Below, in pieces: positions 26,878 through 56,006 of a stretch of 64,000 nt of DNA (the first letter of the stretch is position 1; each line of letters opens with the position of its first letter). A program made the translations under genes and the position numbers. Origin of the DNA: Planctomycetota bacterium (GTDB lineage Bacteria > Planctomycetota > PLA2 > JAEUHO01); NCBI GenBank assembly GCA_965223505.1, contig CBDCWP010000026.1, positions 1 through 64,000 of the forward strand, given 5' to 3'. The notes under the pieces are model-generated. The model saw only the letters and a list, made by a program, of their open reading frames with translations, searched no databases and was not told the origin of the DNA.

Positions 26878-29637
26878 ATGCGCGGTCCCGCTGCGGTCTC
26901 GGTTGTGCTCGTCCTGGCGGTGCTTCCCTCCGTCGCGGCCGACGACGACGTGCGCGTCACCACGACGTGGGAGCCGACGGCGCTGCGCGTGTCGGACGGC
27001 CACCCCGTCGCGTTGCAGGCGCTCGGATCGGAAGCGGCCCTCCCTTCGGGCGTTCGCAACGGACGCGTCGCGCTGCTGAGGCTCGGGGGCCGTTCGTTCC
27101 GGCTCCTGGTCGAGTCCGTCGAGGACGCGCCCCGGCTCTGGTACGACCGCAACCTCAATCAGCGCCTCGACGACGATCCGGCCGTCAGGCTCGAGACGGG
27201 CTTCCGCACCAAGATCGCCCTCGAGGTCAAGCACGCCGACGAACCGGATGATGCGATCACGGTGCACGTCGGCGTGTGGCTGCAGCGCGAAGACGACGTC
27301 GCCACGCTGCTGGTCCGTCCCGACGCGCACCGCCGGGGGCAGGCCGTCCTCGGCGGCCGCCTGCGCCGCTTCGCGCTCTGGGACGGCAATGCCGATCTGA
27401 GCTTCGACGATCCGACCCACGACTTGCTGTTCGTCGACCTCGACGGCGACGGCCGACTCGACACGGCGTCGGCGTTCGAGCAAGTCCGCGTCGGCGAGGT
27501 GTTCCCGGCCGGCGGCGTGGGCTACACCGCGACGGTCGCCGGCGGATCGGGACGCGTGGTCACGTTTCGGCCGACCGCCGACGCGCCCGCGCCGCGACGG
27601 CGCCCTTGGCCGTCGACGCGCACACCGGAAGCGGGCATCACCCTGCGGCCGTCCAACAACGGCTTCGAGCTCTTGGCGAAGCGGTTCCGCGAGCAGAAGT
27701 CGCTGCGTCTGGCCAAGCGGAAGCTGGCCGTCTATCAGCTCGGGTCCGAAGGCTCGAACCAGGCCTTCGACCTTCTGATGAAGGCCGCCAAGACCGATCG
27801 CGACAAGAACATGCGCCCGGTCGCGTTCGCGGCGCTCGGCAATCGCGCGTTTCTCGACTATGGCGGCGACAGGGTCGTCGCCTTCACGAAGCGCGCGCCC
27901 CCCGCACTCCAGCGCGAAGCCCCACGGGTGCTGTACCGCATGGGTCACCCGGGCCGCGCGCGAGCCTGCATCGAGCTGTTGAGCGCCAAGGACCCGGAGG
28001 TCGTCGGCAACGCGGCGCGCCATCTCGCGTACGAGGACACGCAGGTCGCGCGCGCGGCGATCTTCAACACGGTGCGCACCCATCCCGTCGAGCCGGCGCG
28101 CGCGGCGGCCTACGAGTTCGGCGCTCGCTCGCTCGAGGGCGGACCTACGGCCGAGCTGATGCGCTTCGTCTTCGAGGAGGAGGACGACCGGGTCCAGCTC
28201 CTGGCGCTGCGGGACCTCCATGCGACGGGAGAACCGGAAGCGACGAAGCTGGCGCTGTCGCTCACGAAACGACGGCCCGTCGAGCGCGATGTGGCCGAGA
28301 CCGTGATCCCGATCCTGGGCCGCGACGCGAGTCGCAAGAGCGTGGCCGCGCTGCTCGAGATGGCCGACGCGTACGCCCGGCCGGAGACGCTGCGAACGCT
28401 GCTCGAGGCGGAGCTGCGCTGGGCGCGCAGCCCCAGGATCACCGACGCGATCATCGACGCGCTCGACGCCGACTCGCCGCACATCCGCATGATGGCCGCG
28501 GACCTCCTCGCCCGCGGCGACGATCGGCGTGCGACCTCGGCGCTGGTCGCCCGCGTGGCGAAGGAACACGACGACGCCGTCAAGCGCGTGTTGCTGCGCG
28601 CGCTCGGCGATCAGCGCGACCCGGCATCGATCGACACCTTGGTCGAGTTCGCACGGCGCCGGAACGGGCCCATGCGCTCGATCGCGCTCTCCGCCCTCGC
28701 GCGCATCGGCTTCGACAACGAACGCGTGCGCGGGTTCTTCGTCGGCCTGCTCGACGCGCCGCAGTGGCCCGACCGTCTCCTGGCCATCGCGGCGGCCGGC
28801 GAGAGCGGCGACCCGAGCCTGTGCGCGAGCATGCTGCCCTGCCTCGGCCACAGTCAGTGGCAGGTGCGTCTGGCGCTGCTTCGCGCGCTGCGCAAGCTCC
28901 GCTGCCGCGACGCGATCGAGCCGCTCATCGAACGGCTCGCGAACGAGGAGAGCGGCCGCGTGCGCCACGCCCTCGCCGTGACGCTGTACGTGATCACGGG
29001 CGTGCATCTCTACGACGATGTCGAGACGTGGCGGCGGTGGTGGCGTGAGAACGCGGCGACGTTCCGCGTGCCGAAGGAGCCGCCGGCGAAGATCCCCGCC
29101 GCGAGCGACACCAACCCGGAGTTCTACGGGATCCCGCTCGTGTCGAACCGGATCGCGTTCGTCATCGACCAATCGGGCTCGATGTCGGCGACGTCCGGGA
29201 CGGCGGCCGCGTCGCGTCTCGACATCGCCAAGAGCGAGGTCCTGCGTTCGATCGCCCAGCTCGATCGCAAGGCCAAGATCAACGTGGTGTTGTTCAACAA
29301 CGGCGTGCGAGCCTGGCGCGACGGGCTGGTGTTCCTGTCGCCGTCGCGACGCGCGAACCTGGAGAAGTGGCTGGCCCGACGTTCCCCCAACGGCGGAACG
29401 AACCTGTACGACGGCTTGGAACGCGCGCTCCTCCTAAAGGAGGTCGACACCGTCTACCTGCTCTCGGACGGCGAGCCCGGGGTCGGCCGGTTCATCGAGG
29501 CGAGCGACATCCTGCGCGAGGTCCGCCGCCTGAACCTGACGCGCGGCATCGCGATTCACTGCGTGTCGATCGGCCGCGCGTCACCGCTGCTTCGGGAGCT
29601 GGCGGCGGCGTTCGACGGTCACTACGTGCGGCGCTAG
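26878..29637 (+). CDS. Exported HEAT-repeat protein with C-terminal vWA domain
   Basis: Signal peptide; many HEAT repeats; FVIDQSGSMS MIDAS, GGTNLYDGL, LLSDGEP. Confidence 0.88.
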   Translation: MRGPAAVSVVLVLAVLPSVAADDDVRVTTTWEPTALRVSDGHPVALQALGSEAALPSGVRNGRVALLRLGGRSFRLLVESVEDAPRLWYDRNLNQRLDDDPAVRLETGFRTKIALEVKHADEPDDAITVHVGVWLQREDDVATLLVRPDAHRRGQAVLGGRLRRFALWDGNADLSFDDPTHDLLFVDLDGDGRLDTASAFEQVRVGEVFPAGGVGYTATVAGGSGRVVTFRPTADAPAPRRRPWPSTRTPEAGITLRPSNNGFELLAKRFREQKSLRLAKRKLAVYQLGSEGSNQAFDLLMKAAKTDRDKNMRPVAFAALGNRAFLDYGGDRVVAFTKRAPPALQREAPRVLYRMGHPGRARACIELLSAKDPEVVGNAARHLAYEDTQVARAAIFNTVRTHPVEPARAAAYEFGARSLEGGPTAELMRFVFEEEDDRVQLLALRDLHATGEPEATKLALSLTKRRPVERDVAETVIPILGRDASRKSVAALLEMADAYARPETLRTLLEAELRWARSPRITDAIIDALDADSPHIRMMAADLLARGDDRRATSALVARVAKEHDDAVKRVLLRALGDQRDPASIDTLVEFARRRNGPMRSIALSALARIGFDNERVRGFFVGLLDAPQWPDRLLAIAAAGESGDPSLCASMLPCLGHSQWQVRLALLRALRKLRCRDAIEPLIERLANEESGRVRHALAVTLYVITGVHLYDDVETWRRWWRENAATFRVPKEPPAKIPAASDTNPEFYGIPLVSNRIAFVIDQSGSMSATSGTAAASRLDIAKSEVLRSIAQLDRKAKINVVLFNNGVRAWRDGLVFLSPSRRANLEKWLARRSPNGGTNLYDGLERALLLKEVDTVYLLSDGEPGVGRFIEASDILREVRRLNLTRGIAIHCVSIGRASPLLRELAAAFDGHYVRR

Positions 29638-29641: not shown

Positions 29642-30187
29642 CTACTGCGGCTCGAGGAAGACCTGCGTCCACCAGGGGCCGTCGTAGGACCCGCCCGGAC
29701 CGAAGCGCGCGCCGACACCCACCGCCGATCGGTCCGTCGTGAGCAGGTTGAGGTTGTGGCCGGGCGAGTTCGCCCACGCGTCCACGACCTCCGCGGGCGT
29801 GAGCTGCCCGACGGCCACGTTCTCGGAGACCGAGGTGTGCCCGATCTGCGCGGCGGTCAGACGGTCGCCGGGCGTCTCGCCGTTCGGCCCGAAGTGCGTG
29901 AAGTTGCCGATGCCCTGTTGGTACATCGAGTGCTCGTACGCCACCTGGGCCGCTTCTTCGTGCCACGTCAGCGGCGGCAGGCCGTGGGCGGCCCGGTAGT
30001 TGTTGGTGTGCACCCAGACGTCGCGGGCGAAGGCGTACTCGTCGGCGGTCGGCGTGCTGGTCGGATTGATCGATCCGCCGCCGGGCGCGCTGTTGTCGAA
30101 GCGGCCGACCAGGTCGTCGGCGAAGTCACCGGCACCGCAGGCGGTGAAGAGCAGCGCGAGGACGAGGACGGACGGGCTGCGTGACAT
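29642..30187 (-). CDS. CAP/SCP-domain lipoprotein
   Basis: Lipobox FTAC; TNNYRAAHGLPPL, HS.Y, ENVAVG, WANSPGHNLNLL, WTQVF. Confidence 0.9.
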   Translation of the reverse strand: MSRSPSVLVLALLFTACGAGDFADDLVGRFDNSAPGGGSINPTSTPTADEYAFARDVWVHTNNYRAAHGLPPLTWHEEAAQVAYEHSMYQQGIGNFTHFGPNGETPGDRLTAAQIGHTSVSENVAVGQLTPAEVVDAWANSPGHNLNLLTTDRSAVGVGARFGPGGSYDGPWWTQVFLEPQ

Positions 30188-30315
30188 CGAGAGGGATCTC
30201 CACTCCCTGTATCGACGCGCCCACCGCCCCCGCTGTAGGAAAACGTCGGTTCCCAGCGTACCCGGCGGCGGCCCTCGCGCGAGGACAAGGCAGTCGACCT
30301 GCCGGAGTGCCCCCG

Positions 30316-30978
30316 ATGCCCGCACCGCTCACGTTCCTTGTCACGCTTCTTCTAGCCCTCGTCGCCGCCGCAGGCCCCGCGCTGGCGGAGTCCATCGAGA
30401 CGTTCTCGCTCGACGGCGCTCTCGGCGACGGCGACAGCCAGTGCCTGAGCCAAGACACCCTCACCGTGACGCGAACGGGGCTCTCGGTGGGCGACGTCAC
30501 GTTCGACGTGGTGCTGACCGTCGTCGGCTCGAACGATCTCAACCAGGTGAGCTCGGGGCTGGGCGTCGACGGCGGCTCGAACCCCATCAACGACGGCGAG
30601 CACCTGACGTTCTCGCTCGAGATCAAGAACGAGAAAGGCGGAACGGTCACCTTCGACGGGTTCTCGGAGGTCGACTTCACCTTCTTCGGCGCGGACGGGG
30701 AGCAGGCCGTCTTCAGCAAGGACGACAGCCTGACCTCCACGAGCGACAACTTCCTGATCGCGGAAGGAAGCGACGACGACCCCGCGGATCTCTCGGACAC
30801 GTCGCCACTGGCGTTCACGCTCTTCGGCCACGACGACGGGGGCACCGTCTCCTTCCGCGTGGACTCGATCGACGCCGCGTTCAGCGCGGCCTCGCCCGTA
30901 CCCGAGCCGGCGTCGGCCTTGCTGCTGGGGACCGGCGTCCTCGTCGTCGCCCTGCGGCGACGACGCTGCGCGTCCTGA
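30316..30978 (+). CDS. PEP-CTERM sorting-domain surface protein
   Basis: Signal peptide; acidic Ser/Thr/Gly-rich body; C-terminal VPEPASALLLGTGVLVVALRRRR. Confidence 0.9.
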   Translation: MPAPLTFLVTLLLALVAAAGPALAESIETFSLDGALGDGDSQCLSQDTLTVTRTGLSVGDVTFDVVLTVVGSNDLNQVSSGLGVDGGSNPINDGEHLTFSLEIKNEKGGTVTFDGFSEVDFTFFGADGEQAVFSKDDSLTSTSDNFLIAEGSDDDPADLSDTSPLAFTLFGHDDGGTVSFRVDSIDAAFSAASPVPEPASALLLGTGVLVVALRRRRCAS

Positions 30979-31006
30979 TCACGTCGCGCGGGTAGACTCC
31001 CGCCCC

Positions 31007-31849
31007 GTGAGCACCGCCGTCGAGAACGCAGATCTGGCCGCCTATCTCGCGTACCTCCGTGCGCACGGGGCCCAGTTCGACGTGTCACCGGCGTTGCGCC
31101 GCGACCGCGATCACACGGAGCGCACGTTGGCTCCGTGCAAGGACAAGTGGGCCGACATCGACTGGGACGGGCTGCCGCACATTCGCGAGCGCCGGGACCC
31201 GGCGGCCGGGTTCGTCGCGGACCACGCGACGGAGATGATCGCGCGCTGCTACACCAACCCCGCGGTCTTCGAGCCCGGGTGCCGGGTGTGGGACGTCGGC
31301 TGCGGCACCGGCGTCCTCGGCGTGCTGGCGCTCGTCATGGGCGCGAAGGAGGCCCTGGGAACGGACATCTCGCTCGACGCGCTCGAGCTCGCCGATGCAA
31401 CCGCCGGCGCCGCGGGCGTCGCGTTCCCGATGTACGTCGGCTCGGTCCTCGACGCCGTGCCGGTGGAATGCGCCGCGGATCTCGTGACAGCGAACCTGCC
31501 GCACAAACCGTGTCCGCAAGACCGCATGCTGCAAGTCTCGCAGAACGGCGGGCCGGAAGGCGACGAGCCGCACGCGCTGCTCGCCGCGCAAGCGTCGGAG
31601 CGTCTCTCCCCGGGCGCCCGCGTGTTGTTCTTCCTGCACTCGCTCCCCCACCCGCGCCTCCTGGGTCACTACCAGGCGTCGTTCGACCTGACGCTGCTCG
31701 CATGGAAGTACCGGTTTCTCGGCGATGGCGAATACGGCGCGCTGGAAGAGGTCTTCGCGAAGCGCTGCAGCGAGGGGCGCAGCTTCATCGTCGAGCGCGA
31801 CGGCCGGCGCGCATTGATCGCCTGCGCCTGGATGGCGAGGCGCAAGTGA
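31007..31849 (+). CDS. Class I SAM-dependent methyltransferase, HemK/PrmC-like
   Basis: VWDVGCGTGVLG, GTDIS, ANLPH (NPPY-like motif IV), GGPEG. Confidence 0.85.
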   Translation: MSTAVENADLAAYLAYLRAHGAQFDVSPALRRDRDHTERTLAPCKDKWADIDWDGLPHIRERRDPAAGFVADHATEMIARCYTNPAVFEPGCRVWDVGCGTGVLGVLALVMGAKEALGTDISLDALELADATAGAAGVAFPMYVGSVLDAVPVECAADLVTANLPHKPCPQDRMLQVSQNGGPEGDEPHALLAAQASERLSPGARVLFFLHSLPHPRLLGHYQASFDLTLLAWKYRFLGDGEYGALEEVFAKRCSEGRSFIVERDGRRALIACAWMARRK

Positions 31850-32652
31850 ATGCGCGGCTGATCGTCAACGCCGACGACGGTGGGCTCGCTGCCTCGACCG
31901 ACGCGGCGATCCTGCGCTGCGCGCGGGAGGGCATCGTCGGCTGCGCGTCCGTCGTCGTCAGCGGCACGAGCGCGGCGACGTTCGTCCGCGACGCCGCTTC
32001 CATCGGCATCGACCTCGGCCTGCATCTGAACCTCACCGAGGGCCGCTCGCTCACCGGCGGGCCGGCGCTCCTGACGGACGACGACGGCTCGTTCAAGGGA
32101 CCGAAACAAGCCGTCTGGGCGTGGGGCGCGACGACCGACACGCCGCCGCCGGGACTCGTCGAGGAGATCCGCGCCCAGTGGCAGCGGCTGTGCGAGCTCG
32201 GCGCCCGTCCGACCCACGTGAACGGCCACAATCACGTCCACGTGCTGCCGCCCGTGTTGCACGCGTTGCGCGAGGCGCTGGAAGACGAGACGGTCTACGT
32301 GCGCATGCCGCACGAGGCCCACGCCGGTCACGTCCCGCCCTTTCCGCTCGAAGCGCTGTGCGCCCGGGCGCGCGATCGGTTGCCGGGGCGCTGGCGCGCG
32401 ACGGACGGGTTCGTCGGATACGGCTTCTGCCACGCGCCGTCCGTCGAGACGTTGCTCGACAGCCTGCCGGAGCCGCGCGGCACCACGGAGCTGATGGTGC
32501 ATCCCGGCGGACGCAGCGGCTCGCCGTTCGGCGAAGCACCGGAGCGGGAGGCCGAGGTCGAGGCGCTCTGTGACGGCAGCCTCCTGCCGCGCCTCGAGGC
32601 GCGGGGCTATGCACCGGCCACGTTCCGGGACCTGCTTCGGGAGCACGCATGA
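31846..32652 (+). CDS. YdjC/ChbG/HpnK-family carbohydrate deacetylase
   Basis: GTG at 31846 overlapping the upstream TGA; LIVNADDGG, GLHLNLTEG, HVNGHNHVH, ELMVHPG. Confidence 0.9.
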   Translation: MNARLIVNADDGGLAASTDAAILRCAREGIVGCASVVVSGTSAATFVRDAASIGIDLGLHLNLTEGRSLTGGPALLTDDDGSFKGPKQAVWAWGATTDTPPPGLVEEIRAQWQRLCELGARPTHVNGHNHVHVLPPVLHALREALEDETVYVRMPHEAHAGHVPPFPLEALCARARDRLPGRWRATDGFVGYGFCHAPSVETLLDSLPEPRGTTELMVHPGGRSGSPFGEAPEREAEVEALCDGSLLPRLEARGYAPATFRDLLREHA

Positions 32653-33638
32653 CGATCCGCGTCGCGATCGTCACGAACGCGCTCGGGCCGCCGACGCGCG
32701 GCAACGGCACCACGGTGCAGCGCTGGCTCGGCTGGCTGCCGGACGTGGACGTCGATGCGTTCGTCGTCGATCCGAGCGGCGACCTCACCTTCGACGGCCC
32801 CGCGCCCGACGTCGTTCACGGCTATCACGCCCTGCACGGCGGAGAGGCCGCGATCCGCCTCGCGGACCGGGTCGACCGTCCGCTGATGGTCAGCATCGGC
32901 GGTACGGACCTGTTGTCGTTGCGCACGGGCGAGGGCGAGGTCGAACGCTGCCGCCGGGTCTTCGAGCGCGCGGACCTGGTGACCGGCGCCGTCGCCTCGT
33001 TCGGCGAGGTTTTGGGCGAAGTCCCGTACGCGGTCGTCCCGCGCGGGGTGCACGTGCCCGACACGCCTCCCTCGAAGCCCGACGGCCGGCTGAGCGTGCT
33101 CCTGCCGGCGGGCCTGCGCCCGGTCAAGGACCCGCTGCTCGCCATCGAGATGGCCGACGTCCTCATCGAACGCGGCGTGGAAATGCACCTGCTCATCCTC
33201 GGCCCAACGCTGGACGACGACTACGCGTCGCGCGTTCTCGAAGCGGCGGCATCGCGCGAACACGTGACGCTGGGCGAGGTCGAACGCGACCAGATGCCGG
33301 CCGCCTACGCGGATGCGCACGTCGTGTGGAACACGTCCTTCCACGAGGGAGGCTCGAACGCCGTGCTCGAAGCACTGGCCCATGGCTGCGAGGTGTACGT
33401 GCGCAACGCGCCGGGCAACTACGACGTCCTGCACGACCTGGAGGCGCCGGGGCGCCTGTTCGGGCCGGGCGACTGGGAGGACCTGGAGTCGTTCCATCGC
33501 TGGCTGTTGCAGGAAAGCGACGACCAGCGCGCGGAGCGCGTGGAGCTCACCCGTCGCTGGTTGCTCGCGAACCACAGCTCGGCGTCCGAGGTGCGCGCCT
33601 TGCGCGCCGCATACGACCGGCTACGCGCGGTGACGTAG
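32649..33638 (+). CDS. GT-B (GT4-like) glycosyltransferase, SenB/GLT1D1-like
   Basis: GNGTTVQRW, HGYHA, GGTD, PAGLRPVKDP, NTSFHEGGSNAVLEAL; ATGA coupling to the deacetylase. Confidence 0.82.
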   Translation: MTIRVAIVTNALGPPTRGNGTTVQRWLGWLPDVDVDAFVVDPSGDLTFDGPAPDVVHGYHALHGGEAAIRLADRVDRPLMVSIGGTDLLSLRTGEGEVERCRRVFERADLVTGAVASFGEVLGEVPYAVVPRGVHVPDTPPSKPDGRLSVLLPAGLRPVKDPLLAIEMADVLIERGVEMHLLILGPTLDDDYASRVLEAAASREHVTLGEVERDQMPAAYADAHVVWNTSFHEGGSNAVLEALAHGCEVYVRNAPGNYDVLHDLEAPGRLFGPGDWEDLESFHRWLLQESDDQRAERVELTRRWLLANHSSASEVRALRAAYDRLRAVT

Positions 33639-37804: not shown

Positions 37805-39595
37805 TTGAATCTCGTGAAGACGCTCCGCACCCTTCTCCTCGAAAGCCGGCCGAGCTTCGCCATCCGCCGCGGCGCGGCGTTCTTCATCGAGGCGGTGCTC
37901 TGGGCCTCCGGCATCACGGCGTTGGAGGTCAGCGCGCGGTTCGCGAAGACGGACGCGTCCGATCTGATGGCCGTGGCATGCGGAACACTCTTCATCTTCG
38001 TGATGGTGCGCGCGTCCAAGTCGGGGTTGCTGATCGCGACGCGCCACATCGGCGGCGCGCTCGTCGCCCGCTGCAAGCAGGCCGTCAAGCGTCTGACCCC
38101 GCGGTATGCCGTTGCGTTTCGCTCGCGACCCGAGGTGCCGTCGAAACCGGATGCCGCGCTCGACGTGGCGCTCTGGATCGGCGCGGTCGCCGCGGCCACG
38201 TTCGTCGCCTTCGGCGCGCAGATCTTCGACGGGCTGCTGTTTCTCAAGACGGACGTCTCGTACACCGTGTACCTCGTCCTGCTGGCGTTCGTCTGGGCCG
38301 TCCTCGCATTCGTCGTGTTCCTCGGTGCCGTTGCCGGCGCGCAATGGGTGCAGCAGATGGGCGGAGGCACGCGCACGGCGCCCACGCTGATCCTGTGTCT
38401 GGGTTGGCTCGCGGGCATGCTCGTCACCGCCATCGTCCCGGGGATCGTTTCGGTTGCCGCGGTCGCCCTCTTCGCGGGCATCCGCATCCGTTGGCTGTGG
38501 CGGCGCCCGCGCACGCCGTATCTGTTCTGCCGGCGCGATGCCGACGGCTACCCGCGCACGGTCCGCGTCGGACACTATCTCGTACAGGCGTACTTCCTGA
38601 TCGCGCTGCTGCTGATGTCCGTCGTTGCCGTGGGCCAGTCGCAGCGGATGTGGAGCGTGGCGTTGCCGGAGGGGCCCTTCGCGCTGACGACCGGACTCGG
38701 GACGTTCGCAGCGGTGAGCGCCGTTTTCTTGATGGCCCGGGTGGGCGCGCACTTCCATCGGTTGACGGGCAGCCGGCACCCGCCGGAGCTGCCCCTACGA
38801 CCGACGGCCTGGAGTCGCGAGCCCGACGAAACCGACGAACGCGCCGGCGAGACGCAGTGGATGCGTGTCGCCCGCGAGCACGGCTGGACCGTGACGCGAG
38901 GACCGCGCGCGCCGTCGGACGGCTACGATCTCGTGGCGGGCGACCCGAGCGACAGCCGGCGCTTCGTGCCGCGACCGGACCAGGACGACGCCGATACGTT
39001 CTTCCAGCTCCAACGCCGCTTCCACGTCGTGATGCGCCGGCGCTTCTACCGGCCGTTCAAGCGCCTGTACAAGGCGCTTCGCGCGAAGCGTTCCTACCAG
39101 GGATCCGGCTTCCTGTTCTGCCCGCATGTCTGGCTCGTGGCGGGCGTCGTACGTGACGTGGACCCGCAGGCGGTCCGGGGCTCGGGTTCGCTGGTCGGGC
39201 CGAGCTACGTCGGACCGCTCTACGGCGATCTGTTCGAGCCGCGGGTACGCCGCTATCTCGGCAACGTGTTGCGCAAGCTCGAGATCGACATCGTGTTCTG
39301 GGAGGACGCCATCCGGTACCCGGAGCTTCGACGCGTGTTCGGCGTCGCGTTCGAGATCTACGACCAGGACCGCGCGCCGCTGCAAGCGCGGCACTTCGTC
39401 GGCGTGCCGAAGGTGCGCGTGATGATCCACGAAGAGGACGCGGAATCCGACGGCAGCGGCAGCAGTGCGGGCCGCCCGACGCAGGCACCGGGCTACGCAC
39501 GCGTGTTGGTGATCATGCGCGACCGCAGCGAGGACGAGGACGTCATGTCGCTCGATCCGGAAGATGCGTCGTTGCGCAGCCCCGCGCTCGTGTAG
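37805..39595 (+). CDS. Hypothetical multi-pass membrane protein with soluble C-terminal domain
   Basis: About 8 TM segments in the N-terminal half, then a globular region; start uncertain (TTG 37805 or GTG 37814). Confidence 0.75.
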   Translation: MNLVKTLRTLLLESRPSFAIRRGAAFFIEAVLWASGITALEVSARFAKTDASDLMAVACGTLFIFVMVRASKSGLLIATRHIGGALVARCKQAVKRLTPRYAVAFRSRPEVPSKPDAALDVALWIGAVAAATFVAFGAQIFDGLLFLKTDVSYTVYLVLLAFVWAVLAFVVFLGAVAGAQWVQQMGGGTRTAPTLILCLGWLAGMLVTAIVPGIVSVAAVALFAGIRIRWLWRRPRTPYLFCRRDADGYPRTVRVGHYLVQAYFLIALLLMSVVAVGQSQRMWSVALPEGPFALTTGLGTFAAVSAVFLMARVGAHFHRLTGSRHPPELPLRPTAWSREPDETDERAGETQWMRVAREHGWTVTRGPRAPSDGYDLVAGDPSDSRRFVPRPDQDDADTFFQLQRRFHVVMRRRFYRPFKRLYKALRAKRSYQGSGFLFCPHVWLVAGVVRDVDPQAVRGSGSLVGPSYVGPLYGDLFEPRVRRYLGNVLRKLEIDIVFWEDAIRYPELRRVFGVAFEIYDQDRAPLQARHFVGVPKVRVMIHEEDAESDGSGSSAGRPTQAPGYARVLVIMRDRSEDEDVMSLDPEDASLRSPALV

Positions 39596-39754
39596 ACCGC
39601 TCATTCTCGCGGGGATCCGCAATTCGCACCGCCGGCGCGCCGTCCTCGTCTCCATGGGCGGGAATTCGGGTATCCCGAACAACAGCCTTGCAGTAGTCTC
39701 TGCGCCCGATTCGACCGCGTCGAGAGGCCGGTCCAAACAAGGAGGAAACGCTCG

Positions 39755-39850
39755 ATGCGTAAGGTCATCACACTTCTCGTTCTCACCGTCGTCTGCTTCG
39801 GCATTGCGGCCTGCACCAGCGGCGGCGGCTGCTCGACCTGCGGCGGCTAG
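39755..39850 (+). CDS. 31-aa Cys-rich lipopeptide MRKVITLLVLTVVCFGIAACTSGGGCSTCGG
   Basis: AAGGAGG RBS at 39739-39745; type II signal peptide with lipobox IAAC; TAGTAG double stop; own terminator; below the ORF-track length cutoff. Confidence 0.82.
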   Translation: MRKVITLLVLTVVCFGIAACTSGGGCSTCGG

Positions 39851-39871
39851 TAGAACGAAATCGCTGGATTC

Positions 39872-39913
39872 GAAGGGTCACGTCTCCGCGCGAGACGTGG
39901 CCCTTCTTCAATT
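39872..39913 (+). terminator. Intrinsic terminator hairpin between the lipopeptide gene and the convergent radical SAM gene
   Basis: 15-bp stem GAAGGGTCACGTCTC / GAGACGTGGCCCTTC (one G-U pair), 5-nt loop, then TTCAATT. Confidence 0.75.
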
Positions 39914-39971
39914 CGGGACGGATGCACGCAAGGCACGGCGAGCGCGTGGACGTGCCGCCGACCCGCAACGC

Positions 39972-42452
39972 CTAGCAGCACGCCTCGCCCGGCACGCAAC
40001 CGTTCTCCAACGTCGGGAACGGTTGCGTCGGATCCGTCACCAGGAACGACGACTGGTACGGCGCGACGCGCAGCTTCGCCGCCGTGTCCGTGCAGACCTC
40101 CACCGGTACGCCGCGCGGGAAGCGATGGCCCTCCTCGTCCACGACGGCCTCGAACGGCCCCAGGAACGTCGCCGTCTCGCCGATGTAGACGCACCCGGCC
40201 TTCTTCTCGTACTTCCACGCGCGGACCGTGACCGTCAGGTAGGTGACGTCTTCCACGCTGCGCCACGGCGCCCTGCGCAGCACCTCCAGACCGTGGAAGC
40301 CGGCCCGCCGCAGCATCGACAGGAAGGCGTCTTCCGAGAGCGCGCCGGAGAGGCACTCGCCCCACAACCTGCCGTCGACCTTCTGGTGCGGCGGCACCTC
40401 CCGGTCGGCGACGATGTCCGAGATGACCGCGCGGCCGTTGTCCTTCAAGACGCGCCAGATGCCCGCGAGCACGCGCTCCTTGTCCGGTGACAGGTTGATC
40501 ACGCAGTTGCTGGTCACGCAGTCGACGCTGGCCGCCTCGACGGGGATCTCCTCGAGGAATCCCTTGCGGAACTCCGCCACGTCGAAGCCGAGACGTTCGG
40601 CGACCAGCGGTTTGTTCTCCGCCGCGACCGCGAGCATGCGATCCGTCATGTCCACCCCGATCGCGCGTCCAGTCTCGCCGACCTTCTTCGCCGCGATGAA
40701 CACGTCGATGCCGGCGCCCGAGCCGAGATCGAGGTAGGTCTCGCCCGCTTGGAGTCCGCAGCGCGCGACCGGACTCCCGCATCCGTAGAAGCGGTCCAGG
40801 ACGGCCTGCGGAATGTGCGACGTGTCCTCCGGCTCGTAGCTCGTCGGACAGCACAGCTCCTCCTGCGGTTCCTCCGCGGCGTCGCCGTAGAACTCGCGCA
40901 CGACCTTGCGGGCGGCGTCGAGATCGTAGGAGAGCACGCATTCGCTGTGGCGAAGGCGCACGCCGGGCTCCGGCGCCGCGTCTACCTCCTTGTCGCCGCA
41001 CAGAACGGCGCCCTGCCCCATGGCGCGCTCGATGCGGGCCGCGTCGAACCCGGCTCGGTTGCGATGCGCCTTGCGCGCGTGCACCAACCGGTCGAACGCG
41101 TCGGCGATCATGCCCTTGTGCAGCTCGCAGTACGGGTCGTGCGCGAGGAACGACTTCTTGCCGAGCTGCGCGGGGCCGGCGTGCCAGGCGTGCTCGAGAT
41201 CGCCGCCGCCGCACAGGAACCGCAGCGAGCAGTCGCGGCACACGGCCTTCTCGGTGAGCGACAGACGGCGGATGTCCTCAAGCACGGTGCTCGTGCGCCA
41301 GATCGTCTCGAGCGACTGCTCGTTGAGGTCGCCGGCCCGAAGGTCCGACTCGCCGGCGAGCGCCGCACTCGGGTACACGCCCCCGTCGGCGTAGATGCAG
41401 AGACTCTCCCAGCCCATGTTGCTCAGGTCGTGGCGCGTCCCGGCGCGCGCGGTCAGCCGTTGCTCGACGGAGACGTCGTTGTCGACCGTGACGTCGAGCT
41501 CGTCGGCGACAGCCCGCACCTTGCGAACGACGTCCAGCACTCGTTCCGGCGCCAGCTCGAGGTCGTCGCCGGCCCGGCCGCGGTGGTGCAGCCAGAGCAG
41601 GTGGTGGTTCTTGACCCCCATGCCGGCGAGCAGGCGCGTGGTGTCGGGAAGATCCTCCGCATTCGACGCCATGATCACGGTCGTGACCGTGACCCGCAGG
41701 CCCGCATCGACCGCCTTGCGAATCCCGGCGTTGATCTTCTCGAACGATCCTTCGCCCCGGCACGGGTCGTTGAGCGCCGGCGTGCTGCCGTCGAGCGAGA
41801 TCTGCACGCGGAAGCGGTCGGTCGGGAAGTCCGAGAGCGTGCCGAGACGGTCGTCGGTGAACAGCATCCCGTTGGTCAGGACGCATACCTCGGTGTCGTC
41901 GTGACCGAGGATCCATGCGATGAGGCCGACCATGTCCTTGCGCAGGAAGGGCTCGCCGCCCGTGATGAACACGCGCTTCACGCCCAGATCGAGGCCCTGC
42001 CGGATCCACCCGCGCAATACGTCGGGCGCGACGCCTTTGTCGCCGTCCGGCCCGGACGACACGAGACAGTGCGCGCACGTCAGGTTGCACGAGTTGTTCG
42101 AGTGCACCCACAGCTCGCGCAGGTTCGCAAGCCGCAGACGCCCGGCTCGGCCCTCGTAGGCGCGCGCGGCGGACGGGGCGTGGCGCAGGAAGCCCTCGCG
42201 CAGGGCGTCGAGCGCGAAGCTGTGGACGTGCATCCACGCCTTGCCTGGGTCGTAGCCGAACGAGGAGCCGTACGACTGCGTGACATCGTCGAGGTTGCGG
42301 CGGCCGTCGAAGAGCGAAGCCAGTCGCTCACCCCGCTCGTCCGTCCCGATCCAGTGCGGTCCCTCGGGATCGATCAGGACCCGCGTGCCGTTCCGGCTCA
42401 GGCGGGCCATGGGGGGCGCGTGAAGCACGCTGGAGCCGTCGATCGTCGCCAT
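39972..42452 (-). CDS. Fusion: PqqD/RRE-like domain, radical SAM, SPASM-like domain, ArsM/AS3MT-type methyltransferase
   Basis: CNLTCAHC and ITGGEP; CRDCSLRFLCGGG...DPYC; ELCCP, FYGCGSP, DLGSGAGID, SNCVINL, WGECLSGA; ends EACC; GAGGAGG RBS. Confidence 0.9.
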   Translation of the reverse strand: MATIDGSSVLHAPPMARLSRNGTRVLIDPEGPHWIGTDERGERLASLFDGRRNLDDVTQSYGSSFGYDPGKAWMHVHSFALDALREGFLRHAPSAARAYEGRAGRLRLANLRELWVHSNNSCNLTCAHCLVSSGPDGDKGVAPDVLRGWIRQGLDLGVKRVFITGGEPFLRKDMVGLIAWILGHDDTEVCVLTNGMLFTDDRLGTLSDFPTDRFRVQISLDGSTPALNDPCRGEGSFEKINAGIRKAVDAGLRVTVTTVIMASNAEDLPDTTRLLAGMGVKNHHLLWLHHRGRAGDDLELAPERVLDVVRKVRAVADELDVTVDNDVSVEQRLTARAGTRHDLSNMGWESLCIYADGGVYPSAALAGESDLRAGDLNEQSLETIWRTSTVLEDIRRLSLTEKAVCRDCSLRFLCGGGDLEHAWHAGPAQLGKKSFLAHDPYCELHKGMIADAFDRLVHARKAHRNRAGFDAARIERAMGQGAVLCGDKEVDAAPEPGVRLRHSECVLSYDLDAARKVVREFYGDAAEEPQEELCCPTSYEPEDTSHIPQAVLDRFYGCGSPVARCGLQAGETYLDLGSGAGIDVFIAAKKVGETGRAIGVDMTDRMLAVAAENKPLVAERLGFDVAEFRKGFLEEIPVEAASVDCVTSNCVINLSPDKERVLAGIWRVLKDNGRAVISDIVADREVPPHQKVDGRLWGECLSGALSEDAFLSMLRRAGFHGLEVLRRAPWRSVEDVTYLTVTVRAWKYEKKAGCVYIGETATFLGPFEAVVDEEGHRFPRGVPVEVCTDTAAKLRVAPYQSSFLVTDPTQPFPTLENGCVPGEACC

Positions 42453-42640
42453 GGGGCCTCCTCCTCGACGCGGAAAGGACGTACGTTCCGGTCGTCCGCA
42501 TTGCAGCGGGGTGCGGATCCTACCGCACCCCCGACCACGGGTGCGCGGGGGCGGGGGACGGGGATCCCGGAAGCGCGGGGGGCATCGAGATCGGTCGACG
42601 GGGGGTTGAAACCGGGGTACACCCGAGCCGGAGGCCCCCC

Positions 42641-44110
42641 ATGCGAACGGTCCGACTCGTGCTGATTTTCGCCCTGCTCCTGGTTTCGACAGCGGCCGCG
42701 CACGCCGAGGAGCAACCGGCGACGCGACGCATCAAGATCCCGGCGGCCTCGCTCACCGTCGACGTGCCCGCCGACTGGACCGTCGACCAGTACGACGACG
42801 CGCCGCTCAAGCTGTCCAAGGGCAAGGCGGCGGTCTGGTTTCGAACCGTGGCGGCGGCGCCGGGCGGCTCGAACGACCTCCAGCGCCTGGCAGACCGCGT
42901 CGGCGCCGACTTGGCGAACCCGCCCAAGGTCGCTCGCTGGAAGGTGAAGGGCGCGTTCGGCGCGCGTGCGCTCTGGTACGAGGAGGAAGGACAAACGCGC
43001 TTCGCCGGCATCATCAACGTCACGGACAAGTCCGCGATTCACGTCGAGGCGTACATCAGCGAGCCGGAGCAAGACACCCGCAAGGCGCTGGAGGCGATCT
43101 TCGGGACCGTGAACACGACCGCGTTCGCGCACCCCGAGCGCCATGTGAGCTGGAACGATGGCTGGACGCTCGAGATTCCGTCCGACTGGACGCGGCAGCG
43201 GGACGAAGCCCACGCGAACCGGGTGCGCCTGCGCTCGCCCGGCCGATCCGGTGTCACCCTGCGCATCGATCGCGTCACCGAGAAGGCGGCCGCGGAGACG
43301 GCCGCGCAGCGCGTGCGCCGCATGATCGACGCGACGGCGGAGACGATCCGCGCGCGGGGCCTGAGCTTCTCGATCGAGGGCGAGGGCGGGGACATGGCCA
43401 TCGGCTCGACCGACTTGAAGCACGGCGATGCCGCGCCGTCGTTCCGCGGCCGCGCACGCATCTCACGGGAGGGCATGGCGCAGCCGATCTTCATGCACGT
43501 CGAGGCGCTCCTCGTCGGCCGCATCGAGCTGTTGCTCGCGTGCACGGGCGGCGCGAAGGATGTGCTCGAGGCGGCGCGCGCGACGGCGGCCACGCTGCAG
43601 GAAGGCACGCATCCGGGGCCCTATGAGATTCGGGTGCCGGCCCGGCCCGACCGCTTCGAGAGCAAGAAGGCGCCTCCGGTTCGCTTCGACCTGCCCGAGG
43701 GCTGGACGCTGGGCACGCCGCGAAGCCCCATGCGGCTGGCGGAGATCCAGGCGCCGGGCGGGCTGCACGGCTCCGTGTACTACTTCGGCGAGGGCCGGGG
43801 CGGCGGCCTCGAGCCCAACATCGAGCGCTGGAAGGGCCAGTGGACCGAGGCCGGCGAATGGAAGCGCGAGACGCTCGAGCTGGACGACGACATGCGGGCG
43901 ACGCTCTTGTCGGGTTTCGGCCGCTACGTCGCGCCGCTGCGGCCGGGGTTGCCGGACAAGCACGACAAGCCCGACCACGGGTTGCTGGCGGCGTATGTCG
44001 AGGTTCCCAAGGGCCCGCTCATGTTCAAGATCGTCGGGCCGAAGAAGGACGTCGAGAAGGCCGCGACCGCGTTTCGCAATTGGATTCGCAGCTTCAAGCC
44101 TGCGGACTGA
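42641..44110 (+). CDS. Exported hypothetical protein with repeated PsbP-like segments
   Basis: GGAGG RBS, signal peptide; three P..W starts (VPADW, IPSDW, LPEGW); YFGEGRGGG..NIERW. Confidence 0.75.
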   Translation: MRTVRLVLIFALLLVSTAAAHAEEQPATRRIKIPAASLTVDVPADWTVDQYDDAPLKLSKGKAAVWFRTVAAAPGGSNDLQRLADRVGADLANPPKVARWKVKGAFGARALWYEEEGQTRFAGIINVTDKSAIHVEAYISEPEQDTRKALEAIFGTVNTTAFAHPERHVSWNDGWTLEIPSDWTRQRDEAHANRVRLRSPGRSGVTLRIDRVTEKAAAETAAQRVRRMIDATAETIRARGLSFSIEGEGGDMAIGSTDLKHGDAAPSFRGRARISREGMAQPIFMHVEALLVGRIELLLACTGGAKDVLEAARATAATLQEGTHPGPYEIRVPARPDRFESKKAPPVRFDLPEGWTLGTPRSPMRLAEIQAPGGLHGSVYYFGEGRGGGLEPNIERWKGQWTEAGEWKRETLELDDDMRATLLSGFGRYVAPLRPGLPDKHDKPDHGLLAAYVEVPKGPLMFKIVGPKKDVEKAATAFRNWIRSFKPAD

Positions 44111-52252: not shown

Positions 52253-53172
52253 GCCGGCGGTCCCTTCGGCAACGGCGGCGCCTGGTACACGCGGCTGCGC
52301 AACGGGTGCGCGACGTGTTCCGCGATGCCGTGGCTCGCTTCGCGCAACCGCTCGAGCTCGACGCCCGTCCGGATGTCGAGGCCGTCGAGCAGGAACACGA
52401 TGTCCTCCGTCGCCAGATTGCCCGAAGCCCCCGGCGCGAACGGACATCCGCCCAGCCCCGCGGCGCTGGCATCGAACGCCGTGATGCCGTAGCGCAACCC
52501 CTCGAGCACGTTGGCCGCGGCCATGCCGCGCGTGTCGTGCAGGTGCAAGACGAGCCTGCGCACGTCGATCGTCTCGAGGAGGACGTCGAGCAGACGCGCG
52601 ATGTCTCCCGGCGTCGCGGCGCCGATCGTGTCCCCGACGGAGACCTCGTCGCACCCCAGCTCGAGCAGACGCTCGACGACGTCGAGTGTCGCGGCGGGAT
52701 CGACCGGCCCCTCGTACGGACACGCGACCGCCACGCTGACGTAGCCGCGCAGCGCCAAGCCGCTCTCGCGCACGGTCTTCGCCACCGGCTCGAAGTTGCT
52801 CAGCGACTGGTGGATCGTCGCGTTCACGTTGCGTTGGTTGAAGGTCTCGGTCGCGGCGGTGAATACCGAGACCTTGCCGACCTCGACGTCGAGCGCGCGT
52901 TCCAGACCGCGCATGTTCGGTACGAGCGCGCCGTAGGTCACGCCGTCGGGCGGCGGACCGAGCATCCGAAAGAGCTCCTCGGCGTCGGCGAGCTGCGGCA
53001 CGCGGTCGGGGCGGACGAACGACGAGACCTCGATGTCGCGCAGACCCGCGGCGGCAAGACGCCTCACGAACGCGGCCTTCGCGTCCGTCGGGACCGGCTC
53101 GACCTCGTTCTGCAGCCCGTCGCGCGGCCCGACTTCCGTCAGCGTCACGCGCGAGGGCAAGGTTCTGCTCAT
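52249..53172 (-). CDS. liuE: Hydroxymethylglutaryl-CoA lyase
   Basis: EVGPRDGLQNE, GDTIG, HLHDTRG, GLGGCPFAPGASGNLATED. Confidence 0.93.
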   Translation of the reverse strand: MSRTLPSRVTLTEVGPRDGLQNEVEPVPTDAKAAFVRRLAAAGLRDIEVSSFVRPDRVPQLADAEELFRMLGPPPDGVTYGALVPNMRGLERALDVEVGKVSVFTAATETFNQRNVNATIHQSLSNFEPVAKTVRESGLALRGYVSVAVACPYEGPVDPAATLDVVERLLELGCDEVSVGDTIGAATPGDIARLLDVLLETIDVRRLVLHLHDTRGMAAANVLEGLRYGITAFDASAAGLGGCPFAPGASGNLATEDIVFLLDGLDIRTGVELERLREASHGIAEHVAHPLRSRVYQAPPLPKGPPA

Positions 53173-53690
53173 TGGACCGCCTCGGCCGTCTGAAACGAGA
53201 CGACCTCCTCGCCCAATTCTACGCGGTCCCCCGTTTGGAAGTGGACGGCGTCCACCACGAGATCGCGCGGCGCGCGCACGACGTACTCCATCTTCATCGC
53301 CTCGACCACGAAGAGCTCGGCGCCGGAGACGACCTCGGCGCCCGCATCGACCGACATCTTGGCGACGACGCCGCTCATGGGGCTGGCGGCGGACTTGGCG
53401 GCTGCGCCCGACGCCGCAGCCGCCGCGCCGGGCTCGGCCAGCTGCAGCCGCACGCTGGCGCCGTCGATGCACACCCACGCCGTGTCGCCGCGCGTGACGA
53501 CCGTCGCGCGCAGCGTGCGTTCGCCGACGCGCACCTCGACGCGGTGCGCGCCGAGCCGGCGCGCGGCCGCCTCGACGTCGTGGTCCGCGTCTCCGATGCG
53601 GATCGAACCCGCGAGCATCCCGTCCGCCTGGCGCAGCTCCGCCTCTGCCGCGTCCGCACCGTCGAGGTAGACCCGCCGGAGGCCGCTCAC
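53169..53690 (-). CDS. Biotin carboxyl carrier subunit (split C-terminus of MCC alpha)
   Basis: SPMSG...VEAMKME biotinylation motif. Confidence 0.88.
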   Translation of the reverse strand: MSGLRRVYLDGADAAEAELRQADGMLAGSIRIGDADHDVEAAARRLGAHRVEVRVGERTLRATVVTRGDTAWVCIDGASVRLQLAEPGAAAAASGAAAKSAASPMSGVVAKMSVDAGAEVVSGAELFVVEAMKMEYVVRAPRDLVVDAVHFQTGDRVELGEEVVSFQTAEAVQ

Positions 53691-55219
53691 GTGTCACCGC
53701 CCATGCGGAAGCCCGCCAGCGTGTCCCACGGCGACGGCAGCTCGATGCCGCCGTTCGTCCCGGCCGGCGACGACCCGGCGCGGCCTGCCAACAGCTCGTC
53801 GGCGGCGGCGCACAGCACGGCGTCGAGCAGATCGACGTGACCGGTGGCGAGCTCGGGCGCGATGTCGTCCAGCGCGTCGATGCGCAGTCCGCCCGGCTCG
53901 AACGCGTCGTGGGCGAGCAACGCCCGCAGGAACGCGACGTTGTTGGCGACACCGGCGATCACCATGTCGCGCAACGCCGTGTCCAGTCGGCGCCGCGCCT
54001 CCTCGCGCGTCTCGCCGTGCGCGACGACCTTCGCGAGCAGCGGGTCGTAGAACGGCGAAACCTCCATGGTCGTCATCAACGCCGAGTCCACGCGGATCCC
54101 CGGCCCCTGCGGTTCCGACGCATGTTCGATGCGTCCGGCGGACGGCAAGAACCCCTGCGCCGGATCCTCGGCGTACACGCGCGCCTCGATGGCGTGGCCG
54201 CGCGCCGAGAACCGGCTGGGATCGGGCAGCGCCTCCCCTGCCGCGACCCGCAGCTGCCAGGCGACGAGGTCGACGCCGAAGCACATCTCGGTGACGGGGT
54301 GCTCGACCTGCAGCCGCCGGTTCACCTCCAGGAAGAAGAACGAGCCGTCCGGCTGCATCAGGAACTCGACGGTGCCGGCGCCGCGGTATCCCAGCGCGCG
54401 AACGGCATCGGCGCCGGCGCCATGAAGCGCGGCGCGCACGTCGTCGCTCAAACCGGGGGCGGGGCACTCCTCGATCACCTTCTGGTGACGGCGCTGTAGC
54501 GAGCAGTCGCGTTCGCCGAGCACCACGACGCCGTCGTGCGCGTCGCACAGCACCTGCACCTCGACGTGTCGCGCAGGCTGCACGATGCGCTCGAGATACA
54601 GCTCGGTGTTGCCGAACGCGCCGCCGGCCTCGCGCCGCGCACCTTCCGCGGCGGCGAGCAGCGCGCCCGCTTCCTCGACGCGGCGCATGCCCTTGCCGCC
54701 GCCGCCCGCGCTGGCCTTGAGCAGCAACGGATAGCCGGTCGCGTTCGCCGCCGCCGTCAACGCCGCGTCGTCCGCCGGCACGGCATCGAGCGGCCCGGGA
54801 ATCACGGGCACGCCGGCGTCCGACACGCGTCGCTTGACGACGAGCTTGTCGTTCGAACCTTCCAGCACGTCGGCCGGCGGACCGATGAACGTGATGCCGG
54901 CGTCGCTGCACGCCCGTGCGAACACGGCGTTTTCCGACAGGAACCCGTAGCCCGGATGCACCGCGTCGGCGCCGGTCGCGCGCGCGGCGCGAACGACGGC
55001 CTCCACGTCGAGGTACGACGCGGTCGCCTCCGCGGGTCCGATGAGGACCGCTTCGTCGGCCTCGAGCACGTGGCGTTGTTCGGCGTCCGCTTCGCTGTAG
55101 ACGGCTACCGACGGGATGCCGAGGGTGCGACACGTGCGCATCACGCGCAGGGCGATCTCCCCACGGTTCGCAACGAGCACCTTGCGGAAGGGGTTGCCGT
55201 TGCCGGATCGAGACGTCAT
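53687..55219 (-). CDS. Biotin carboxylase subunit of 3-methylcrotonyl-CoA carboxylase
   Basis: KVLVANRGEIALR, HPGYGFLSEN, GGGGKGMR, RDCSLQRRHQK, RLQVEHPVTE, YDPLLAK. Confidence 0.92.
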   Translation of the reverse strand: MTSRSGNGNPFRKVLVANRGEIALRVMRTCRTLGIPSVAVYSEADAEQRHVLEADEAVLIGPAEATASYLDVEAVVRAARATGADAVHPGYGFLSENAVFARACSDAGITFIGPPADVLEGSNDKLVVKRRVSDAGVPVIPGPLDAVPADDAALTAAANATGYPLLLKASAGGGGKGMRRVEEAGALLAAAEGARREAGGAFGNTELYLERIVQPARHVEVQVLCDAHDGVVVLGERDCSLQRRHQKVIEECPAPGLSDDVRAALHGAGADAVRALGYRGAGTVEFLMQPDGSFFFLEVNRRLQVEHPVTEMCFGVDLVAWQLRVAAGEALPDPSRFSARGHAIEARVYAEDPAQGFLPSAGRIEHASEPQGPGIRVDSALMTTMEVSPFYDPLLAKVVAHGETREEARRRLDTALRDMVIAGVANNVAFLRALLAHDAFEPGGLRIDALDDIAPELATGHVDLLDAVLCAAADELLAGRAGSSPAGTNGGIELPSPWDTLAGFRMGGDT

Positions 55220-56004: not shown

Positions 56005-56006
56005 GG

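Follow-up and report, generated by a model that had tools for sequence, protein, structure and literature searches.

The window analysed here is a 64-kb stretch of DNA from a member of the Planctomycetota (contig CBDCWP010000026.1). It contains on its reverse strand a gene whose product combines an RRE domain, a radical S-adenosylmethionine (SAM) core, a partial SPASM domain and an ArsM-like methyltransferase, and which is a candidate organoarsenical synthase. A first-pass annotation had proposed a single-protein radical SAM / SPASM / ArsM fusion; one intact open reading frame (ORF) of 826 codons, without interruption, and the domain matches bear this out. The GC content at the three codon positions of this ORF (0.69/0.47/0.92) is in line with other real genes of the window, which has 69% GC overall. 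A scan of 39400-42800 for consensus promoters and terminators gave 0 sites of either kind and is uninformative at 69% GC. Public records name relatives of the protein either 'methyltransferase domain-containing protein' or 'radical SAM protein with SPASM domain'. The gene and its parts, all on the reverse strand, are as follows.

39972..42452 (-): RRE / radical SAM / half-SPASM / ArsM-like fusion gene (P0001), 826 aa, stop codon at 39972-39974
42457..42466 (-): Shine-Dalgarno-like GAGGAGGAGG, read from the sequence, 5 nt ahead of the ATG at 42452
42156..42452 (-): RRE / PqqD-like winged-helix domain, residues 1-99 (domain model, Foldseek, PF05402 in homologs)
41631..42095 (-): radical SAM core, residues 120-274 (PF04055 at 1e-22, invariant columns)
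41127..41417 (-): SPASM-like domain, residues 346-442 (Pfam SPASM, anSME alignment, conservation)
40917..41069 (-): fusion-specific linker, residues 462-512, with conserved C485 and S503/C505 (HSECVLS); predicted local distance difference test (pLDDT) 55-75
40026..40916 (-): ArsM-type As(III) SAM methyltransferase, residues 513-809, with N-terminal, Rossmann and C-terminal subdomains all present
39975..40025 (-): flexible Cys-rich C-terminal tail, residues 810-826, with C819, C825 and C826; pLDDT <55

Domains of the fusion protein

Three Pfam families match the protein: Radical_SAM at residues 120-274 (1e-22), SPASM at residues 346-408 (8.7e-8) and Methyltransf_31 at residues 569-718 (1.4e-28). 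The whole protein was modelled with AlphaFold2 on an alignment of 118 sequences. The model has a pLDDT of 87.7 and a predicted template modelling score of 0.86, and is weak only at residues 462-540 and in the last 16 residues.

The first ~85 amino acids had been thought to resemble PqqD/RRE. Modelled by themselves, residues 1-99 have a pLDDT of 90.6, and the top PDB folds found for them by Foldseek are TbiB1 with its leader peptide, PqqD, PbtF-RRE and lasso B1, with template modelling (TM) scores of 0.6-0.73. A match to the PqqD family (PF05402) was obtained for 17 of 30 family members but not, at E<=0.01, for the window protein itself. The fold matches and the presence of PF05402 in homologs show that the earlier guess was right.

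The radical SAM core with a CxxxCxxC motif, also recognised in the first pass, is confirmed by the match to PF04055 and by C122, C126 and C129 (nt 42066-42089), which together with the GGEP motif at residues 165-168 are invariant in the 118 sequences. The N-terminal half superposes on the structures of CteB and TigE with a TM-score of 0.72 over ~470 columns, and on those of SuiB and SkfB with 0.60-0.61. It also matches the folds of anSME, ChlB and PqqE, and BlsE and DesII are among its fold matches. The alignment of the family profile to CteB covers CteB residues 14-248. In NCBIfam the best matches of this half are to assorted SPASM/twitch families, namely the Rv1681 family, WgkB, MftC, NirJ2 and AhbD, with further matches to the peptide maturases StsB and AlbA, all below cut-off.

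In the SPASM-like domain, C405, C408, C414 and C442 align with anSME C317, C320, C326 and C348, the ligands of the second auxiliary cluster, and are invariant or nearly so across the family. The positions of anSME C276 and C330 are occupied by S362 and D418, so that the fusion protein is expected, from its sequence, to hold one auxiliary cluster and not two. The single-sequence alignment to anSME is weak (E 0.09) and the family profile reaches anSME at 2e-15. The other, non-canonical site has C352, S362 and D418/E420/H421, the last three within an invariant CGGGDxEH motif; D418 and H421 are part of the radical SAM half. More distant relatives of the radical SAM half retain the canonical CGGGC, whereas the family of the window protein has CGGGD. 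The SPASM-like domain of the first-pass annotation thus stands as a Pfam match, but with one ligand set in place of the seven-Cys motif for two clusters.

The N-terminal 470 residues share their domain layout, an RRE followed by a radical SAM core and a C-terminal Fe-S domain, with RRE peptide maturases (CteB, 5WGG; SkfB, 6EFN; SuiB, 5V1T; TigE, 8VPO; PqqE/PqqD). The protein might accordingly be a peptide or protein maturase, in which the RRE would recruit a peptide or part of a partner protein, the radical SAM half would modify it and the methyltransferase would methylate it or attach arsenic to it. The genuine RRE fold, the superposition on CteB and TigE and the presence of WgkB, MftC, StsB and AlbA among the best NCBIfam radical SAM matches are consistent with such a role. 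The fusion differs from the known maturases in its single set of auxiliary-cluster cysteines, with S362 and D418 replacing first-auxiliary-cluster ligands that sactisynthases use, and in its attached arsenic methyltransferase, which keeps the full arsenic-binding cysteine set.

This methyltransferase, residues 513-809, has the three-subdomain fold of ArsM and AS3MT (CmArsM, 4FR0/4FS8; CrArsM, 5EVJ; human AS3MT, 8XT7). It is 32-36% identical to the microbial ArsM structures and 30% identical to human AS3MT; the Foldseek matches to solved ArsM/AS3MT, at 30-36% identity overall, include 4fs8 at E 4.5e-22 and 36% identity. The family profile aligns with the solved ArsM structures at E 2e-55 and covers CmArsM 22-345 and CrArsM 17-344. 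The cysteines of this half are C534/C535 (LCCP), C558 (YGCG), C650 (SNCV), C700 (GEC), C754 and C787. In the profile alignment C535, C558, C650 and C700 fall on CmArsM C44, C72, C174 and C224, and all four are invariant in 118 homologs. The titles of the PDB entries for the CmArsM C72A and C224A mutants put both of these residues at the arsenic site. The glycine-rich SAM motif LDLGSGAGID is conserved, and the ArsM-specific C-terminal subdomain is present, the alignment extending to CmArsM residue 345 and AS3MT residue 298. The first pass had described a complete ArsM-like module with Cys in four motifs, an AS3MT-like C-terminal subdomain and a terminal CC. The alignments agree with the first two of these descriptions; the terminal CC is C825/C826 and closes 62 of 70 family ORFs, the other eight ending in CCG, CCP, CCR, CGCRNC or CAR. 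The C-terminal tail has no confident docking in the AlphaFold2 model. Among the 70 family ORFs there was no sign of selenocysteine read-through at the C-terminus.

The NCBIfam models for ArsM proteins match this half below their cut-offs: PRK11873 (residues 515-735) with 224 bits against 263, the arsinothricin ArsM with 190 against 500 and the arsenosugar ArsM with 162 against 400. Positions 167-355 of the 356 in the arsinothricin ArsM model match fusion residues 638-826.

Stand-alone ArsM-like proteins of ~320 aa from uncultured bacteria (e.g. P0332, P0339, P0358) are 56-61% identical to the whole ArsM half, and they too fall just under the PRK11873 cut-off (235-255 bits). They keep the LCCP, YGCG, SNCV, GEC, GCV and VCTDT motifs, and seven of eight keep the terminal CC (P0350 ends earlier). 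They have no radical SAM module, and the C485/HSECVLS linker is absent in seven of the eight, P0264 starting within it. The fusion differs from ArsM in that its methyltransferase sits behind a 500-residue radical SAM module, and in its extra conserved C754, C787 and terminal CC, which the stand-alone relatives also have.

The stand-alone relatives, which are encoded on long contigs, indicate that the methyltransferase can work by itself. The fusion protein could then serve to detoxify arsenite by methylation, its Fe-S module being an accessory that would supply electrons, for example to the ArsM disulfide cycle, or sense redox state or oxygen, and that would carry out no radical reaction on arsenic. 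The window gene is solitary, as many arsM genes are, which suits this explanation. Against it, the SAM-cleaving motifs are strictly conserved over 118 sequences, and the genes found in the operons of relatives (see below) are of biosynthetic type and not ars resistance genes. The first-pass annotation had remarked that no ars resistance genes flank the fusion, and indeed none was found in Pfam scans of the 47 ORFs of the window. We see little chance that detoxification is the function.

The fusion family and its gene neighbourhoods

Relatives were sought in one genome per species. The scan gave at least 578 pattern matches, with a relative encoded in at least 542 of them; 80 loci were taken forward. 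By their record titles 78 of these are metagenome-assembled genomes (MAGs) and the other two are bins or Candidatus organisms, with no named cultured isolate among them. Anammox lineages account for 20 of the kept loci; the others belong to Nitrospirota, other Planctomycetota, Thermodesulfobacteriota, Acidobacteriota, Gemmatimonadota, several candidate phyla and one archaeon.

Among the 120 best database matches, 118 span at least 96% of the fusion protein, at 49-90% identity and in many phyla. The pairwise identities of the two halves are correlated with r = 0.93, a value reached by 0/999 permutations, and the halves have therefore evolved as one unit. Full-length homologs across many phyla and the co-variation of the halves rule out an assembly artefact or chimera. 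The fusion is conserved and obligate in the family, which answers the artefact test proposed in the first pass. Natural split forms were rejected as well, because the radical SAM half has short matches only as fragments, located on short contigs, or as frameshifts. Four of these were read (P0128, P0308, P0132, P0138), and they start or stop out of frame or inside the SPASM domain; the contigs of P0128 and P0308 are equal in size.

An exhaustive HMMER search, for which the radical SAM half was the query, gave 172 representative clusters at E<=1e-30, and the examined ones show at least three kinds of fusion to a methyltransferase. The first is radical SAM-methyltransferase. In the second (~1000-1079 aa), which includes P0371, P0387 and P0400 (~1020-1079 aa), the order is radical SAM-SPASM-methyltransferase-DUF5714, with YGCG, SNCV and GEC kept. 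In P0396, P0405 and P0411 (~681-711 aa) it is reversed, to methyltransferase-radical SAM-SPASM. That fusion to a methyltransferase has recurred, and in either order, is a classical indication that the two functions are coupled. Stand-alone PqqD-radical SAM-SPASM proteins, 27-40% identical to the radical SAM half, were also found.

The two nearest clusters in the ESM Atlas (score 0.99; 160 and 97 members) look like the same fusion family. The rank-6 cluster (676 aa), named automatically 'Radical SAM/Cys-rich domain protein', has methyltransferase and Radical_SAM domains. Judged by its name and domains, it may be a true ArsS-methyltransferase fusion, parallel to the family described here. A full-text literature search, with subscription journals mostly outside its reach, found no paper describing a radical SAM/SPASM-ArsM fusion. 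In the accessible part of an article on arsM evolution (PMC5552862) the sole fusion mentioned is arsM-SelD.

For the survey of gene context, all ORFs of the 80 loci and of the window were clustered, and representatives were annotated and mapped back. A set of 66 loci, 65 relatives and the window, has at least one flank of at least 3 kb. In relatives the fusion gene lies in a recurrent same-strand operon, and nine families recur in this set.

TIGR04282 and/or TIGR04283, within 10 kb of the fusion: 30/66 loci
PHO4-type phosphate transporter: 20/66 loci
VTT/DedA: 16/66 loci
DUF547: 16/66 loci
Redoxin: 16/66 loci
GT-C-like 480-aa protein: 16/66 loci
DUF3179: 15/66 loci
505-aa GT2: 15/66 loci
MerA-like pyridine-nucleotide-disulfide oxidoreductase: 13/66 loci

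When redoxin is set aside, at least one of the other eight families is present in 53 of the 66 loci and none of them in 13; with at least 5 kb on both sides, 33 of 43 loci have at least one. TIGR04282/TIGR04283, VTT, the MerA-like oxidoreductase or DUF547 occur in 40/66 loci. Over all 75 loci, 25 of 31 such neighbour genes are at most 2 kb from the fusion and 28 of 31 share its strand. Representative neighbours pass the curated cut-offs of TIGR04282 (210 vs 134 bits) and TIGR04283 (229 vs 182 bits), both named 'arsenosugar biosynthesis glycosyltransferase' by NCBI. Also recurrent are pairs of an extracytoplasmic function (ECF) sigma factor and a zf-HC2 anti-sigma factor, CcdA/DsbD, AhpD/CMD proteins, an FMN reductase and PstS-type binding proteins. 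These operons of relatives, which weigh most in our reading of the family, bring together TIGR04282/TIGR04283, VTT/DedA, a MerA-like oxidoreductase, ECF sigma and anti-sigma factors and redoxin/CcdA.

Where present, the PHO4/PiT-type transporter gene adjoins the fusion and is always on the same strand (e.g. L002:12436-13566, L026:8652-9785); a few loci have PstS/PstC-like genes instead. The transporter has a possible role in arsenate uptake or a possible link to phosphate limitation. In anammox loci, those of Scalindua and its relatives (L023, L025, L029, L031, L039, L046, L049, L050, L055, L078, L079), a distinct operon lies ~0-10 kb upstream of the fusion. It comprises an FMN reductase, a redoxin, often the PHO4 transporter, the 505-aa cellulose-synthase-like GT2, DUF3179 and the ~480-aa GT-C-like membrane protein, followed by the fusion gene. 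This content hints at a membrane glycoconjugate product.

A precursor peptide gene would be expected nearby if the protein were a peptide maturase. Clustering by blastp-short of the 15-90-aa ORFs up to 700 bp from the fusion, on both of its sides and in 75 loci, found none that is family-wide, though a divergent or more remote precursor may exist; the small conserved ORFs in these loci are lineage-restricted and mostly overlap neighbour genes. One candidate, an 85-aa ORF conserved in four loci, was discarded since it matches the annotated zf-HC2 protein of the ArsS reference plasmid (see below) and is read as an anti-sigma factor. The conserved neighbours are of the ArsS-cluster type and are not genes for ribosomally synthesised and post-translationally modified peptides. 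Peptide modification had been the alternative offered in the first pass; the RRE on which it drew is genuine, but no conserved precursor ORF accompanies it, and we consider this function improbable.

The thiol-rich sites of ArsM-type enzymes are not element-specific, and the true substrate could be another soft metalloid or chalcogen (Sb, Se, Te). The MerA-like oxidoreductases, redoxins and AhpD/CMD proteins among the neighbours would fit such a substrate. The closest solved and curated relatives of the methyltransferase are, however, all arsenite methyltransferases, and the neighbourhood is shared with ArsS; another element is very improbable. Arsenic is probably the substrate of the methyltransferase half.

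Comparison with ArsS and the proposed function

An ArsS reference locus came from searching plasmids by tblastn; the query, a TIGR04283-TIGR04282 protein, led to the B. thailandensis plasmid NZ_CP010016 (L081). There ArsS is annotated with TIGR04283, TIGR04282, a VTT/FAD-oxidoreductase fusion, an ECF sigma factor, zf-HC2, thioredoxin, CcdA, a CMD protein and an S-methyl-5'-thioadenosine (MTA) phosphorylase. Proteins of this plasmid locus were recovered in the fusion loci, TIGR04282 in 21, TIGR04283 in 19, the VTT/oxidoreductase in 19, the sigma factor in nine, zf-HC2, CcdA and CMD in four each and thioredoxin in two. The MTA phosphorylase gene (L081, 8033-8914) adjoins TIGR04283, and no homolog of it was found in the fusion loci; this phosphorylase is plausibly the adenine-removing enzyme for 5'-deoxy-5'-dimethylarsinoyl-adenosine (hereafter DDMAA).

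A phmmer search of the 75 loci, as distinct from whole genomes, with the plasmid ArsS found nothing outside the fusion ORFs. With an ArsS-type neighbourhood in many relatives and no ArsS in the loci, the fusion appears to occupy the place of ArsS without being ArsS. The two are alike in that a radical SAM enzyme stands beside ArsM chemistry and in the neighbourhood that many relatives of the fusion share with ArsS. They differ in that the fusion is not an ortholog of ArsS and in that the window copy lacks the ArsS-type neighbourhood. The C-terminal domain of ArsS is Cys-rich, and ArsS is not known to have an RRE or SPASM domain. The ArsS family TIGR04167 is not among the best 25 of the 83 NCBIfam matches of the fusion protein.

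The radical SAM half might instead tailor the nucleoside or sugar portion of an organoarsenical, or act in redox, while the ArsM half would still methylate arsenic and the carbon-arsenic (C-As) bond would be made by an ArsS encoded elsewhere or by another enzyme. The sugar-nucleoside enzyme BlsE is among the sequence matches to solved structures (1.6e-10; 2.6e-20) and, with DesII, among the fold matches, and glycosyltransferase-like neighbours would suit sugar chemistry. Neither ArsS nor another radical SAM gene was found in any operon of the 75 loci, and the recurrent fusion to ArsM-like domains, in both orders, argues for a shared arsenic substrate. With the profile of the fusion radical SAM core, six further radical SAM ORFs were identified in the fetched loci. 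Of these, one proved to be part of the fusion itself, frameshifted, and none of the other five is on the strand of the fusion. Three of these five were scanned against Pfam or NCBIfam; one has the MoaA pair of domains, and two are unassigned radical SAM proteins that stay under all cut-offs; the remaining two (L062:3813-5198, L007:17299-19209) are known from the core profile alone. A tailoring role is, in our view, unlikely.

Our preferred hypothesis, to which we give a probability of roughly 45%, is that the fusion is a two-in-one organoarsenical synthase of an arsenosugar-type pathway. As(III) would be methylated by the ArsM half, and the C-As bond would be formed by the radical SAM half in place of ArsS. 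Only two radical SAM makers of C-As bonds are known, ArsS and ArsL, both of them separate proteins beside ArsM (PMC13598754; PMC8552651; 10.64898/2026.04.29.721666; 10.1101/2024.02.01.577332). ArsS, as portrayed there, adenosylates dimethylarsenite (DMAs(III)) supplied by ArsM in a redox-neutral reaction that involves an arsenic-centred radical and 5'-deoxyadenosyl and yields DDMAA (PMC13598754; 10.64898/2026.04.29.721666).

In the fusion, the ArsM half would bind As(III) on its conserved cysteines and, using SAM, convert it to a di- or monomethyl As(III), probably dimethylarsenite. The radical SAM half would reductively cleave a further SAM at the [4Fe-4S] cluster of the CxxxCxxC motif, and the resulting carbon radical would be joined to trivalent arsenic. 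This radical would most likely be 5'-deoxyadenosyl, as in ArsS, giving a DDMAA-like product. The electron of an arsenic-centred radical could be taken up or given back by the single auxiliary cluster, or else taken up by the radical SAM cluster. The terminal CC of the tail and C485 and C505 of the linker may ferry arsenic between the two active sites. The adjacent TIGR04282/TIGR04283 transferases would act on this product in most relatives. The radical SAM half would then be a non-orthologous replacement of ArsS on a peptide-maturase scaffold. The coupling of metalloid methylation to radical C-As bond formation had been proposed in the first pass; the neighbourhoods of relatives support its link to organoarsenicals, while the C-As step is one that we infer.

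The second known system, that of arsinothricin, offers a parallel, for in arsQML ArsM is partnered by the radical SAM enzyme ArsL, which creates a C-As bond and passes its product to ArsM. The available portions of the sources state that ArsL makes this bond with an aminocarboxypropyl radical (10.64898/2026.04.29.721666; PMC8552651; 10.1101/2024.02.01.577332) and holds arsenic by C-terminal cysteines (10.64898/2026.04.29.721666; PMC8552651). An arsQML-type context was not seen at the fusion loci, where no ArsL or ArsQ query was used, and the ArsL model is absent among the best 25 of the 83 NCBIfam matches of the fusion protein. The fusion is best filed as already known radical SAM plus ArsM organoarsenical chemistry, new in its non-homologous, fused radical SAM scaffold.

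Several observations weigh against the fusion being an organoarsenical synthase. Among the best 25 of its 83 NCBIfam matches no curated cut-off is reached, and with every match below cut-off it is claimed by no curated family. The plasmid ArsS matches the fusion ORFs only at superfamily level (E 2e-7, 3/75 loci). The closest solved folds are those of the RRE maturases CteB, SkfB, SuiB and TigE, which indicates a peptide or protein substrate, and BlsE among the sequence matches makes a tailoring role for the radical SAM half possible. The family names of TIGR04282 and TIGR04283 presumably rest on association. Ten of the 43 loci with at least 5 kb on both sides have none of the eight recurrent families, and these include the window and its closest relative, a Planctomycetota MAG (L004). 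The genes flanking the window copy are common only to this relative, and when 14 representative neighbour proteins were run against the window by tblastn, no match reached E<=1e-3. Context partners of the window gene, if they exist, lie outside the window.

A bolder extension of the synthase hypothesis, which is possible but doubtful, is that the family represents a second, evolutionarily independent radical SAM route to the C-As bond. A peptide-maturase scaffold (RRE plus half-SPASM) would have been welded to ArsM, and one polypeptide would use three SAM, two for methyl transfer and one for the radical, to make a committed precursor of arsenosugars or arsenolipids. The RRE, lacking a peptide, may grip the Cys-rich tail of the protein itself or a carrier and so move arsenic from one active site to the other. 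The family has a wide distribution among largely anaerobic, uncultured lineages, which include anammox Planctomycetota, Nitrospirota, Thermodesulfobacteriota, Acidobacteriota and Gemmatimonadota. If this were true, complex organoarsenical synthesis would extend into anoxic habitats.

Under the synthase hypothesis itself, the fusion would be a third C-As-forging radical SAM enzyme, on a scaffold unrelated to that of ArsS, and a natural experiment in how a toxic intermediate is channelled. Should the carriers of the fusion make arsenosugars or arsenolipids, they would need a place in models of the arsenic cycle of sediments, groundwater and oxygen-minimum zones. The protein is compact and its predicted structure confident, which makes the synthase hypothesis directly testable in vitro.

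Surroundings of the window gene

The fusion gene of the window is monocistronic, with genes on the opposite strand on either side, neither of which has a Pfam or NCBIfam match.

42641-44110 (+): secreted 489-aa protein
37805-39595 (+): multi-pass membrane protein, 596 aa

Between the window and L004 the fusion proteins are 80% identical, whereas the flanking 489-aa and 596-aa proteins are 35% and 46% identical.

Elsewhere in the window, a cluster at 53169-60442 resembles those of leucine/isovalerate catabolism, with genes for a biotin-carboxyl-carrier and biotin carboxylase subunit, a carboxyltransferase, a short-chain dehydrogenase, an enoyl-CoA hydratase and an acyl-CoA dehydrogenase. Large HEAT-repeat proteins are encoded at 15307-18732 (+), with an M1 peptidase domain, and at 26878-29637 (+), with a von Willebrand A domain. 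The region 29642-33638 encodes a CAP-domain protein and a PEP-CTERM protein, followed by a methyltransferase, a YdjC-like deacetylase and a GT1 glycosyltransferase. The YdjC match is restricted to the second half of its ORF (31135-32652), and the true start of this gene is therefore probably near 31850.

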